IMG/VR virus record: IMGVR_UViG_3300023049_000574 | Location: 64,001-128,000 of that record | DNA length: 64,000 nucleotides | Strand: one strand, 5' to 3' | From: a virus | Notes under the pieces: model-generated | Databases searched by the model: none | Told to the model about the DNA's origin: nothing | What the model saw: only the letters and a program-made list of their open reading frames with translations | Translations under genes and position numbers: made by a program | Part shown: in pieces, positions 40,203 through 50,234 of the stretch | How positions within the stretch are numbered: the stretch's first letter is position 1 | Layout of the letters: each line of letters starts with the position of its first letter

Positions 40203-40621
40203 TGAAAAGAATTTCACCAAAATATATTAAAGAACTAAACGAAAACGAAATATTTGTTTTTGGTAGTAATGAGGGCGGTAGACACGGAAGGGGTGCTGCT
40301 AAGTTAGCCTTAGATCAATTTGGTGCTATATACGGACAAGCCGAAGGTTTACAGGGATCTTCATATGGTATTCCCACTAAAGACAAAACAGTAAAAATTA
40401 CTCTTACTACAGAAGAAATCCAAAAGTATGTTGATAATTTTATTACCTTTGCGATTGATAACAACCATTTAATATTCCTAGTAACGGAAATAGGGTGTGG
40501 TTTAGCGGGGCATGATCCAAGAGACATTGCGCCTCTGTTTAAGAAAGTGAAAAGTGTAAAAAATATTTATTTACCCGAAAGGTTTTGGGATAATTTAGAT
40601 CTCTATGAAAGTATATTATAA
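40202..40621 (+). CDS. Macrodomain-like phage protein
   Basis: IFVFGSNEGGRHGRGAA, GLQGSSYGIPT, FLVTEIGCGLAG. Confidence 0.65.
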   Translation: MKRISPKYIKELNENEIFVFGSNEGGRHGRGAAKLALDQFGAIYGQAEGLQGSSYGIPTKDKTVKITLTTEEIQKYVDNFITFAIDNNHLIFLVTEIGCGLAGHDPRDIAPLFKKVKSVKNIYLPERFWDNLDLYESIL

Positions 40622-40717
40622 AATAAAAGATGAGTTTTCGGAGTTAGATTTTTAAAAAAATAATAATTATATTTGCAAAATAATTAAACAAAAGACAAAA
40701 AGTTTTATATATAGAGT

Positions 40718-40777
40718 ATGAAAATAATTAATGTAAATAGTTCGGTATCACGTATAACTTCTAGGAGTAGAGGGTGA
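40718..40777 (+). CDS. Attenuator leader peptide 1 (MKIINVNSSVSRITSRSRG)
   Basis: 19 codons with 5 Ser (AGT, TCG, TCA, TCT, AGT) and 3 Arg (CGT, AGG, AGA); TTTTATATATA just upstream; followed by a terminator and Arg/Ser tRNAs. Confidence 0.8.
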   Translation: MKIINVNSSVSRITSRSRG

Positions 40778-40804
40778 TATTACTATGTACATAACTTATA
40801 TAGG

Positions 40805-40836
40805 AAAAGCCTTCTACTTTAGTAGAGGGCTTTTTT
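40805..40836 (+). terminator. Attenuator terminator 1
   Basis: AAAAGCCTTCTAC-TTTA-GTAGAGGGC-TTTTTT; its 5' strand can instead pair with AGTAGAGGG at 40766-40774. Confidence 0.85.
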
Positions 40837-40845
40837 CATTTATAT

Positions 40846-40925
40846 GCTCCTGTAATCGGCTCTAGCTACGAACTAGATACCCGTAATCGGAATTGAAAAT
40901 GTGGGTTCGAGTCCCCCCAGGAGTT
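40846..40925 (+). tRNA. Non-canonical tRNA-Arg(ACG), no D-arm
   Basis: Acceptor GCTCCTG/CAGGAGT; anticodon arm TCTAG-CTACGAA-CTAGA; T-loop TTCGAGT; only 8 nt between acceptor and anticodon stems. Confidence 0.65.
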
Positions 40926-40933
40926 CAAAACAC

Positions 40934-41022
40934 GGAGAGGTGGCAGAGCTTGGTTTATTGCACTAGTCTTGAAAACTAGCATACTGTAAAAGGTATCGAG
41001 GGTTCGAATCCCTCCCTCTCCG
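40934..41022 (+). tRNA. tRNA-Ser(TGA)
   Basis: GGAGAGG/CCTCTCC, G73, CTAGT-CTTGAAA-ACTAG, long variable arm, GGTTCGAATCC. Confidence 0.93.
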
Positions 41023-41027
41023 CAAAT

Positions 41028-41116
41028 AGTAGGGTGCATGAGTGGCTTAAGTGACTTGCTTGGAAAGCAAGTGATCGTGTAAAAGCGATCCGTGGGTTCG
41101 AATCCCACTCCTACTA
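41028..41116 (+). tRNA. tRNA-Ser(GGA)
   Basis: AGTAGGG/TCCTACT, CTTGC-TTGGAAA-GCAAG, long variable arm, GGTTCGAATCC. Confidence 0.9.
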
Positions 41117-41120
41117 CAAA

Positions 41121-41209
41121 GGTGAGTTGGCAGAGTGGACGATTGCGCTTGTTTGCTACACAAGTGATCGTGTAAAGGCGATCCGAGGGTTCGAATCCCT
41201 CACTCACCG
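41121..41209 (+). tRNA. tRNA-Ser(GCT)
   Basis: GGTGAGT/ACTCACC, G73, CTTGT-TTGCTAC-ACAAG; variable arm nearly identical to that of Ser(GGA). Confidence 0.92.
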
Positions 41210-41254
41210 CTAATAAACAAAAGGGTTATTATTGATATAATAATTAAAAAAGTA

Positions 41255-41569
41255 ATGGGAAATAATATTAAAAAAATAGACATTAAAGAGTTTAGAGAAA
41301 AAGGATACTTACAAGAAGTTAACCGTATGTTTTTACATCCATTGGGATTAGTATTATCAGTATCAGTTGATGATAATGCTAATGAAAAATTAGATGGTAT
41401 TTGGGATTATAGAGATGATGAAGAAGGGATCATTTATGATATAGCTAACTCAGATACAGATAGACAAAATAGATTCAAAAAGAACATATCATTCATCAGC
41501 GATGAGTTAGAAGGAAGAAAGGAAAGGAGAAAGGAAATCCTTGGCTTCGATATAGAAAAAGTAAAATAG
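41255..41569 (+). CDS. Hypothetical protein
   Basis: GYLQEVNRMFLHPLGL; AAAC-N17-TATAA at 41215-41240. Confidence 0.6.
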   Translation: MGNNIKKIDIKEFREKGYLQEVNRMFLHPLGLVLSVSVDDNANEKLDGIWDYRDDEEGIIYDIANSDTDRQNRFKKNISFISDELEGRKERRKEILGFDIEKVK

Positions 41570-48122: not shown

Positions 48123-48800
48123 ATGGATTTTTTCAAATTAATTTCAAGAGAAAATGTAGGTAAGACTTTCCATATTAAGTTCTTACCCGCTATTGGATCA
48201 GATGATATAATAGATAACTATCCTGTACCTTTTGGTAAGTATCATAAACAAATATACGTTTCTAATGCTATGGTTAACGGAGAGTTTAAACAACTTGTAT
48301 ATAATCAAGTGATGAGGGACTTTTTACAAATATTCTTTCTTGGGACGAGGGGATATATCATCCATCCTGATCCTGAAAAATTAGATTGTGATATAACATA
48401 TAATCATCATAGAATAAATACTACTCTTGAAAACGTATATTTAGATTTAGAGAATAGATATGATGTTACAAGAGATGAGTTAATATATGTTGACTATCCT
48501 GATAATGTACACCCATTTAATATATTATATCCTGCTAATAATGAATATATAATTAATCCTTATAGCTTTAAACTTACTGTAAGGGAGATAACTCTTTTTG
48601 GAACAAGTGGTTTATTAGATTTGGGAAAAATCGAAACGGTTAAATATGATCCTAATTTAATAATTAAAGATCAGAGTGATTCTACTATTAACGAAGCAAA
48701 CGATTTTATGAAAAGCAAACCTAGTTTAGAAGGATTGGCTAAGTATTATGTGGAAGCATACCACAGAGATAAATTCATCGATGATGTTTTAGAAGGTTAA
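48123..48800 (+). CDS. Hypothetical protein with RD tag
   Basis: Ends RDKFIDDVLEG. Confidence 0.55.
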   Translation: MDFFKLISRENVGKTFHIKFLPAIGSDDIIDNYPVPFGKYHKQIYVSNAMVNGEFKQLVYNQVMRDFLQIFFLGTRGYIIHPDPEKLDCDITYNHHRINTTLENVYLDLENRYDVTRDELIYVDYPDNVHPFNILYPANNEYIINPYSFKLTVREITLFGTSGLLDLGKIETVKYDPNLIIKDQSDSTINEANDFMKSKPSLEGLAKYYVEAYHRDKFIDDVLEG

Positions 48801-49045
48801 TTAGAATAAGATATGATGAAAAAGATACTATTAAAAAATATCTTAAAAATTTATTGAATATTAAATAAATTTTCTTATATTTACAGTCCTAATAAAAAGA
48901 GGTAAAGTAGAAACTTCTTATTCTGACTTTTTAATAAGGAGGAATATTGTATAGAATGCTAGAGTAAACTAGAAATCTCTTTTTATTTTTAAACTTTATT
49001 ATATTTACATCCTATAAGGAGAAGAAAACTTTTATATATACAACA

Positions 49046-49117
49046 ATGACAACATTAAATAACATAGCAATTATAGCGAGAGCGAGAGCTTTTAACAGAC
49101 CCCGAATTGGAGTGTGA
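49046..49117 (+). CDS. Attenuator leader peptide 2 (MTTLNNIAIIARARAFNRPRIGV)
   Basis: 23 codons including the run ATA GCA ATT ATA GCG AGA GCG AGA GCT; TTTTATATATA upstream; followed by a terminator and Ile/Arg/Ala tRNAs. Confidence 0.8.
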   Translation: MTTLNNIAIIARARAFNRPRIGV

Positions 49118-49140
49118 CTATAATTAATATGTCAATTTTT

Positions 49141-49179
49141 AAAACCTCAATTCGGATTTCCGAGTTGAGGTTTTTTTTT
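49141..49179 (+). terminator. Attenuator terminator 2
   Basis: AAAACCTCAATTCGG-ATTT-CCGAGTTGAGG-T9; CAATTCGG can instead pair with CCGAATTG at 49102-49109. Confidence 0.88.
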
Positions 49180-49219
49180 GTTATAGATCATCGGGTCGCA
49201 AATTGCGACCACAATAAAT

Positions 49220-49296
49220 ACTGACGTATCCCCGATGTCTTATATACATCATGAAGGTAGCGGTTGAAAACGTGGGTTCGAATCCCACCGTCAGTA
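49220..49296 (+). tRNA. Non-canonical tRNA-Ile(TAT), no D-arm
   Basis: ACTGACG/CGTCAGT, A73, GATGT-CTTATAT-ACATC, GTGGG-TTCGAAT-CCCAC. Confidence 0.7.
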
Positions 49297-49304
49297 CAAA
49301 ATAT

Positions 49305-49384
49305 GCATCAGTATCCGAGGGGAGCTTCTAACTCCTTATCCGTAATTGGAGATGAAAATGTAGGTTCGATTCCTATCTGGTGTA
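49305..49384 (+). tRNA. Non-canonical tRNA-Arg(TCT), no D-arm
   Basis: GCATCAG/CTGGTGT, GGGAG-CTTCTAA-CTCCT, GTAGG-TTCGATT-CCTAT. Confidence 0.7.
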
Positions 49385-49394
49385 CAAATTTTAT

Positions 49395-49469
49395 GGGGTG
49401 TAGCACAGGCGTAGCCTAAATCGTTTGCAACGATTTCAGAACAACAGGGTTCGATTCCCTTACACTCCA
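49395..49469 (+). tRNA. Atypical tRNA-Ala(TGC), possible 8/4 fold
   Basis: GGGGTGTA/TACACTCC with G3:U70 and A73; AATCG-TTTGCAA-CGATT; 4-bp T stem AGGG/CCCT. Confidence 0.7.
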
Positions 49470-49475
49470 CTAAAT

Positions 49476-49552
49476 GGTTCGGTAGCTTAATTGGATAAAG
49501 CAATCGGTTTCTAACCGATAGAGTGAGAGTTCGACCCTCTCCCGAATCACCA
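49476..49552 (+). tRNA. tRNA-Arg(TCT), canonical, with encoded CCA
   Basis: GGTTCGG/CCGAATC, D-loop TAATTGGATA (A20), ATCGG-TTTCTAA-CCGAT, ACCA end. Confidence 0.92.
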
Positions 49553-49559
49553 AATATAT

Positions 49560-49630
49560 GGGGGTTTAGCTCAGTCTGACCGTAAGCGGCACATTTGCAA
49601 TGTGCGTCACACATCGATTCGAAGAAGTGT
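49560..49630 (+). pseudogene. Degenerate/truncated tRNA-Ala(TGC)
   Basis: GGGGGTT-TAGCTCAG 5' half and GCACA-TTTGCAA-TGTGC arm are intact; T-arm degenerate; no 3' acceptor strand. Confidence 0.55.
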
Positions 49631-49823
49631 AAAAATATAGAATATGAAAATGAAACTAAAAATACTAACGTTAGATGAACTAAAAGAAAGAATTAAAACA
49701 TTCGATAAAAAATATGGAAAATATTATGAAAAAGAATAACAATAACTTAGGAGGACACCGCTACCAAGCATTGATACTCGACACCAAAGGAAACTAAAGA
49801 AATATTCTAAGAACTTCTTAGAG

Positions 49824-50234
49824 ATGTTTAACTTTTTCCTCAATAGTCATAGGAATGGGATATTAACCTTTTCGGGAACAAATGATTTCAGTGTCGAGTA
49901 TAAACAAGATGGATATGATAGTAGGTTATGTTTTAGGAAGTTTGATAATGGTGATTACCAAAACAAAGTTGTACATACTAAACACCCTAATATACTATTT
50001 AGTGTAATTAAAGGAAAGAAGTCATGGGGTCTATTTGTTAATGAATGGTCAGATGGAATCGTTGAATCTAGCTTTACTATCGATGAAATTAAAACAGTAT
50101 TCGATGAACAGAATATCAAAGTTCCCGATCCATTATGGAAAGACTTTTTAAACACAATTGGTAGAAAGAAAAGGATAAGAAATCAAAAATACTACAATGA
50201 GCTTATTAAAAATAGTATTATTTCCAATACTTAA
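49824..50234 (+). CDS. Hypothetical protein
   Basis: 136-aa ORF. Confidence 0.5.
   Translation: MFNFFLNSHRNGILTFSGTNDFSVEYKQDGYDSRLCFRKFDNGDYQNKVVHTKHPNILFSVIKGKKSWGLFVNEWSDGIVESSFTIDEIKTVFDEQNIKVPDPLWKDFLNTIGRKKRIRNQKYYNELIKNSIISNT

Follow-up and report, generated by a model that had tools for sequence, protein, structure and literature searches.

Ribosome-mediated attenuators consist of a short translated leader with regulatory codons, together with an anti-antiterminator, an antiterminator and a terminator that are mutually exclusive. To our knowledge, every leader-peptide attenuator described so far controls amino-acid biosynthesis or synthetase genes; for tRNA genes, the usual view is that promoter strength and growth-rate signals set their expression and that attenuation plays no part, and the regulation of phage tRNA genes is, as far as we know, largely unknown. 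The leaders of ilvGMEDA (Ile/Leu/Val), thr (Thr/Ile), trpL, hisL, leuL and pheL have the same four-segment RNA and codon-rich translated leader that are proposed here for two phage tRNA cassettes, and they also share with them the masking of segment 2 by a ribosome at the stop codon and an OR logic over several amino acids. Unlike these enterobacterial leaders, the phage cassettes control tRNA genes, whose product would act directly on the sensed step; their match reaches down to synonymous codons and isoacceptors; and they are carried by a phage with Bacteroidota-type signals. In E. coli, phenylalanyl-tRNA synthetase (pheST, with the pheM leader) is controlled by leader-peptide attenuation sensing charged tRNA. 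Like the phage cassettes, this system attenuates a component of the translation apparatus, but that component is a synthetase, a single amino acid is sensed, and the gene belongs to the host.

The Bacteroidete tryptophan peptide leader (RF01692) shows that Bacteroidota, to which the host probably belongs, combine leader-peptide attenuation with intrinsic terminators; it serves Trp biosynthesis, and the cassette 1 region, at 26.1 bits against a gathering score of 49, is not a member. Nor is this region a member of Thr_leader (RF00506, 20.9 bits) or Phe_leader (RF01859, 21 bits), both with a gathering score of 55, and its match to the Rfam PyrR family is only sub-threshold. T-box riboswitches use competition between terminator and antiterminator, as is proposed for the phage cassettes, so that expression follows the state of one particular tRNA; unlike the cassettes, they bind uncharged tRNA directly, without translation, and control synthetase or amino-acid genes. 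The cysteine-responsive leaderless short-ORF attenuators reported from mycobacteria (bioRxiv 10.1101/834739) likewise have short ORFs, possibly leaderless, that consist of codons of the sensed amino acid and control downstream genes; they differ from the phage cassettes in sensing one amino acid and in controlling bacterial protein-coding operons. The phage cassettes differ from every described attenuator in their tRNA-gene target, their isoacceptor-level match and their phage carrier.

The cassettes lie in a window of 64,000 nt, that is, the whole stretch of DNA analysed, which covers bases 64001–128000 of the 145.5-kb IMG/VR virus record IMGVR_UViG_3300023049_000574. An earlier note on this window had described a leader ORF whose Ser and Arg codons match a downstream Ser/Arg tRNA cluster behind an intrinsic terminator, and had read the arrangement as attenuation. 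The sequence observation is confirmed, and the attenuator interpretation is supported by computation only, with translation, termination or read-through, and a tRNA-shortage signal inferred. In both cassettes, a short ORF with matched codons follows a promoter-like box and precedes a terminator; an antiterminator that is exclusive with the terminator and masked by the ribosome at the end of the ORF is also predicted in both, in silico only; and the genes behind both terminators are tRNA genes, not biosynthesis or synthetase genes. In the main reading, to which a probability of about 0.78 is given, each tRNA array is the distal part of a unit opened by a ribosome-sensed leader-peptide attenuator.

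Anatomy and codon match of the two cassettes

The record is 58% complete according to CheckV. PHROG matches (helicase, clamp-loader-like ATPase/protease, methyltransferase) and the gene layout fit a large tailed phage, and a similarity search of the GenBank phage collection found no close relative, only generic tRNA matches. The two tRNA clusters are the only ones in the whole 145.5-kb record. The features of cassette 1 are as follows.

40667–40677, + strand: promoter-like box TTATATTTGCA, which contains the Bacteroidota-type -7 motif TAnnTTTG
40707–40720, + strand: ATATATA-N4-ATG start context of leader ORF 1 (context count)
40718–40777, + strand: leader ORF 1, 19 codons plus TGA, ATG start (ORF scan, codon enrichment)
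Codons 8–12 of leader ORF 1, + strand: putative sensing run AGT TCG GTA TCA CGT (sequence)
40731–40792, + strand: anti-antiterminator (1:2-type) hairpin, inner stem 40758–40763 with 40768–40773 (minimum-energy fold)
40764–40775, + strand: segment 2, antiterminator strand over the last four codons and the stop, pairing with 40809–40820
40803–40836, + strand: intrinsic terminator 1 (segments 3 and 4), 15-bp stem, 4-nt loop, T6 (terminator scan, fold)
40846–40925, + strand: atypical D-arm-less tRNA-Arg(ACG)-like gene (Rfam tRNA 24.6 bits, fold)
40934–41023, + strand: tRNA-Ser(TGA) (ARAGORN and Rfam)
41028–41117, + strand: tRNA-Ser(GGA) (ARAGORN and Rfam)
41121–41210, + strand: tRNA-Ser(GCT) (ARAGORN and Rfam)

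The upstream gene stops at 40621, and from there to the terminator leader ORF 1 is the sole closed ATG/GTG/TTG ORF of at least 8 codons. The 19-codon leader with five Ser codons (AGT, TCG, TCA, TCT, AGT) and Arg CGT holds as it had been described; two further Arg codons, AGG and AGA, are present and had not been listed. The strong intrinsic terminator placed between leader and tRNAs is also there (15 pairs and T6), as is the repetition of AGTAGAGGG from 40766–40774 in the 3′ strand of the terminator at 40821–40829, with CCTTCTACT at 40810–40818; the pairing of segment 2 comprises 12 bp including G-U. As for the four tRNAs named in the earlier note, the three Ser genes stand, while the Arg(ACG) element is present but atypical: acceptor stem, T arm and an anticodon loop with ACG can be recognised, but it lacks a D arm, is not called by ARAGORN and stays below the Rfam gathering score of 29.

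Cassette 2 belongs to the second tRNA cluster (49220–49552: Ile-UAU, Arg-UCU twice, Ala-UGC) and repeats the layout of cassette 1.

48999–49009, + strand: promoter-like box TTATATTTACA
49046–49117, + strand: leader ORF 2, 23 codons (ORF scan, codon enrichment)
49098–49113, + strand: segment 2, antiterminator strand at the 3′ end of the ORF, pairing with 49143–49156
49141–49179, + strand: intrinsic terminator 2, then T9 (dG −20.3)
49220–49296, + strand: atypical D-arm-less tRNA-Ile(TAT)-like gene (Rfam tRNA 35.5 bits, fold)
49305–49384, + strand: atypical D-arm-less tRNA-Arg(TCT)-like gene (Rfam tRNA 33 bits, fold)
49395–49470, + strand: tRNA-Ala(TGC) (tRNA gene call)
49476–49552, + strand: tRNA-Arg(TCT) (66.9 bits)

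Codons 7–15 of leader ORF 2 are ATA GCA ATT ATA GCG AGA GCG AGA GCT, and 8/9 of them are cognate to the array. This is the only closed ORF of at least 8 codons between the promoter-like box and the terminator of cassette 2; one further closed small ORF, at 48813–48857, lies upstream of the box. Between terminator 2 and the array, a perfect 7-bp GC-rich hairpin at 49194–49210 precedes the first tRNA-like gene and might signal processing or pausing, and array 2 is followed at 49558–49640 by a degenerate tRNA-Ala(TGC)-like remnant that keeps an anticodon hairpin without acceptor stem or T arm. The distance from the T-tract to the first tRNA-like gene is only 9 nt in cassette 1 and about 40 nt in cassette 2, which makes an independent promoter between terminator and array unlikely; a separate promoter downstream of 40836, by which the earlier note would have been refuted, has no room in the 9-nt gap. 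This anatomy and its repetition in cassette 2 are observed directly, and translation of the leaders is inferred.

The signals upstream of the leaders were also counted. Boxes containing TAnnTTTG occur five times in the window against 0.54 expected, and two of the five stand upstream of the two leaders; from their sequence and position, they are inferred to act as putative promoters. A third copy of the promoter-like box is found at 48875–48885, about 125 nt upstream of the box of cassette 2, and is followed by a short AT-rich unit (48875–48998) with weak hairpins and without any ORF of at least 8 codons, which may encode a small transcript. The earlier guess of a Bacteroidota host is supported, as an inference and not as a demonstration, by the enrichment of this box and by the cultivated cassette-bearing phage Panino, which infects a flavobacterium. 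Meanwhile, ATATATA-N4-ATG has 15 sites in the window against 1.5 expected, among them 6068, 26590, 28798, 40707, 51039, 53410 and 55747. Since most of these sites are starts of long ORFs, and the context is common to the ATG of leader ORF 1 and at least 12 long ORFs, this ATG stands in the context of a genuine gene; the context may be a phage promoter making leaderless mRNAs or a translation-start context.

With codon usage in the 52 long ORFs of the window as background, cognate codons make up 6/18 of leader 1 against 0.067 (p = 8e-4) and 9/22 of leader 2 against 0.105 (p = 2e-4), and these cognate fractions are reached by only 3/446 and 4/446 of the small ORFs of the window, respectively. 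Taken alone, the two leaders are told apart weakly (Fisher p = 0.057), since each of them contains Arg codons. The best duplex between the leader and the 5′ strand of the terminator reaches −16.1 kcal/mol in cassette 1, matched by 0/2000 dinucleotide shuffles, and −13.6 kcal/mol in cassette 2, matched by 10/2000. Across the whole record, an upstream antiterminator complement is found at 2/17 strong terminators, both of them those of the cassettes (z = −4.2 and −3.3), with the other 15 between −1.2 and +1.2. The statistical specificity of codons and complements is an observation.

The atypical gene at 40846–40925 belongs to a recurrent tRNA-like class in which 7–8 nt replace the D arm and a variable region of 20–27 nt ends in TGAAAAY; further members are 49220–49296, 49305–49384 and genes in other viral loci (L082–L198). 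The class is usually missed by ARAGORN and scores 24–36 bits with Rfam. It has 89 unique examples, 68 of them with a readable anticodon loop, and in 67/68 the anticodon is that of Arg (TCT, TCG, ACG, GCG) or Ile (GAT, TAT), the exception being GAC (Val). The motif was considered as a clue to the host and rejected, as a scan of bacterial genomes matched many unrelated phyla.

Folding of the leaders and position of the ribosome

In the proposed mechanism, a Bacteroidota-type promoter would start transcription, and ribosomes would translate the short leader ORF behind the moving RNA polymerase. When the cognate codons (Ser AGT/TCG/TCA and Arg CGT in cassette 1; Ile ATA, Ala GCN and Arg AGA in cassette 2) are read fast, the ribosome would reach the last codons or the stop and cover segment 2, the terminator hairpin would form, and transcription would end before the tRNAs. 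When charged tRNA is scarce and decoding slow, a ribosome stalled upstream would melt the 1:2 hairpin, free segment 2 would pair with the 5′ strand of the terminator, and the polymerase would enter the array. The tRNA set would probably be transcribed only when ribosomes decode the cognate codons slowly and, as the products relieve the stall, the circuit would be a negative feedback on decoding capacity with an OR logic over isoacceptors. It is assumed, without transcript or translation data, that in the infected cell the polymerase responds to intrinsic terminators and works in coupling with ribosomes; a shortage of charged tRNA as the signal is likewise an inference.

In the minimum-energy fold of both untranslated leaders, a long 1:2-type hairpin sequesters segment 2 and stands beside the terminator; the whole-region folds have z = −4.7 (cassette 1) and z = −5.9 (cassette 2), and the hairpin, seen in both, has no significance figure of its own. 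Folding with the ribosome footprint masked, as the earlier note had proposed, gave a divided answer. At equilibrium, the terminator is dominant wherever the ribosome stands: P(term) never falls below 0.54, and it comes down to this value only with the A site on codons 8–10; the equilibrium view of the switch was rejected, because it cannot show switching when the terminator always wins. As in classical attenuators, the switch must then be kinetic, and competition between the hairpins in time is inferred. Equilibrium folding was replaced by a co-transcriptional model in which the transcript is truncated before the 3′ strand of the terminator. Here, the antiterminator of cassette 1 has a probability of about 0.95 with the ribosome at codons 1–12 (0.82 at 12) and of 0.57 and 0.23 at codons 13–14, and no longer forms once the ribosome is at codon 15 or beyond, up to the stop; in cassette 2, P(2:3) is 0.7 at codons 2–14, 0.6 at 15 and at most 0.01 from codon 16 to the stop. 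The cognate runs (codons 8, 9, 11 and 12; codons 7–15) end at or just before the switch point. The proposal that a ribosome at codons 8–12 frees the antiterminator and one at the stop masks it is thus borne out in the truncation model.

In cassette 1, the productive zone contains only four cognate codons. The codons TCT (codon 15), AGG, AGT and AGA are within or next to segment 2, so a stall there would mask this segment and favour termination; in terms of the model, these late codons probably reflect pairing constraints and not sensing, and it is doubtful that leader 1 senses the Ser(GGA) isoacceptor. These points also leave some space for an explanation in which the leaders are translated and matched to their arrays but the output is not classical, acting instead through transcript processing or stability, Rho access or timing, reversed polarity, or control of the downstream protein genes (41255 onward). 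In its favour, every modelled state has the terminator prevailing at equilibrium, segment 2 of cassette 1 includes several cognate codons, and sequence inspection and the terminator scan showed no terminator after array 1, so read-through may reach the protein genes. Such an output is nevertheless considered unlikely: the cognate runs directly precede segment 2 in the two cassettes as well as in 25 matched ones of the wider survey, which is what classical polarity predicts, and the antiterminator complement is specific to the cassette terminators.

Cassettes in other phages

Evidence for the attenuator reading from outside the window comes from the covariation of leaders with arrays. IMG/VR was scanned for the atypical-tRNA motif, chosen without regard to leaders, which gave 117 loci; together with earlier loci, these contain 894 ARAGORN tRNAs in 291 clusters. 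A terminator lies at most 420 nt upstream in 75 of the 268 clusters having upstream sequence, and 52 non-redundant cassettes combine a terminator with an ATG ORF of 8–45 codons ending near it. Array contents are incomplete, as ARAGORN misses atypical tRNAs. Over the 52 cassettes, the match score between leader amino acids and array set is 86.1 against 31.1 ± 5.2 in permutations, none of 20,000 reaching it, with phage kinship not fully removed; the match persists without the window. Synonymous codons readable by array anticodons number 107/149 against 76 expected (z = 5.3), and in same-contig comparisons the own array beats the other array in 24/32 cases (Wilcoxon 2e-4). The covariation of leader codons with array anticodons that had been predicted for related phages is therefore observed at the amino-acid, synonymous-codon and within-genome levels. 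In addition, 52% of residues upstream of segment 2 are cognate against 24% within or after it (p = 1e-12, 25 matched cassettes), the match is specific to the leader frame (44%, against 17–25% in the five other frames), and 72% of matched cassettes have a significant antiterminator complement despite differing terminator sequences.

As a negative control, 120 bacterial loci from the genome scan for the atypical-tRNA motif were run through the same pipeline; their 50 tRNA clusters included four with both a terminator and an ORF, and leaders and arrays did not match (score 1.1, null 1.6). It remains conceivable that the terminator ends an upstream unit or a small RNA, that the ORF is untranslated, and that the tRNAs arise from leaky read-through, since AT-rich DNA abounds in short ORFs (the window has 446) and Rfam leader families match only below threshold; however, such a coincidence would require two independent codon enrichments (p = 8e-4 and p = 2e-4) with two antiterminator complements, as well as covariation across 52 cassettes that 0/20,000 permutations equal, and it clashes with the frame specificity and the empty bacterial control, so it is regarded as very improbable. 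Direct sensing of tRNA by the leader RNA in the manner of a T-box, with codon-like triplets pairing anticodons and no translation, can point to triplets complementary to array anticodons in the leader but is the least credible of all, because no T-box (RF00230) match exists at E up to 10 in 40500–41400 or at E up to 1 in 48700–49900, the pre-terminator leader of about 90 nt is too short for a Stem I platform, the triplets lie in frame in an ATG-started ORF with gene-like start context and are frame-specific, and a single specifier loop would not account for the several differing triplets of each leader.

The attenuator reading can be followed into individual loci. Three leaders (L111, L124, L190) have the same N-terminal pattern and ATA/Ala codons, with Gly codons alongside Gly tRNAs; the counterpart in the window is AGA codons alongside Arg(TCT) tRNAs. 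In L109, a Ser-rich leader is followed by an atypical Arg(TCG) tRNA (Rfam 36.3 bits), Ser(TGA) and Ser(GCT); this locus lacks both a Ser(GGA) gene and TCT/TCC codons, and the window has both. No flanking protein genes are common to the window and the cassette-bearing loci, which indicates that distant genomes have either conserved the device or acquired it repeatedly. The upstream 142-aa gene has 80 homologues of at most 65% identity, none of them next to a comparable tRNA array; for the downstream 104-aa gene there is one homologue, which lacks an array and has only a lone tRNA, about 2.4 kb upstream.

Further leader types were noted in other viral contigs (L094, L103, L147, L159 and others). 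A Lys-rich leader precedes four tRNA-Lys genes, Pro/Gln/Asp leaders precede Asp/Gln/Pro arrays, and Leu/Asn/Thr/Val/Cys leaders precede matching arrays. An N-terminal pattern of Met, Lys/Arg/Thr, and Asn at about positions 5 and 7, with A-rich codons, recurs in differing leaders (window, L103, L105, L109, L111, L124, L140, L147 and L190) and may reflect a requirement of initiation or early elongation, or common descent.

Cassettes are also present in a cultivated virus, Maribacter phage Panino (PP540027.1), whose host Maribacter halichondriae belongs to the Flavobacteriaceae.

L201:3822–3951 and L201:4843–4962: the two Panino cassettes, codon-matched leader and terminator before tRNA blocks

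In the first of these, 4 nt separate the box TATATTTG from the leader ATG downstream of it, codons 4–13 of the leader encode only Gln, Arg, Leu, His, Glu and Pro, and the array after the terminator consists of tRNA-Pro, Glu, Gln, His, Leu, Leu and Arg. In the second cassette, a leader rich in Ala, Gly, Ile and Lys precedes tRNA-Ala, Lys, Ile and Gly. Leader 1 is annotated as CDS0063, with an upstream TTG start; leader 2 is unannotated and comes after a 49-aa hydrophobic ORF (CDS0064). The description of Panino counts 20 tRNAs and mentions no leader, terminator or transcription attenuation (PMC11590407), and neither that paper nor full-text literature searches yielded a published account of attenuation of tRNA genes.

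Meaning for phage tRNA arrays

It is considered likely that these arrays are expressed on demand under an isoacceptor-specific, ribosome-sensed feedback, that this is the first leader-peptide attenuation of tRNA genes, and that it is widespread in phages of Bacteroidota-like hosts. The demand could be created by host shut-off, by a mismatch of codon usage or, more speculatively, by tRNA-cleaving defence nucleases. The cultivated phage Panino makes this reading testable, and the leaders would provide a natural isoacceptor sensor, which might find use as a reporter, as well as a label, readable from the sequence, of the purpose of each array. If the reading is true, it would explain why arrays are split into blocks of particular composition, and it would tie phage tRNAs to the depletion of host tRNAs, anticodon-nuclease defences included; the phage would gauge the decoding capacity of its host codon by codon and supplement it only where needed.
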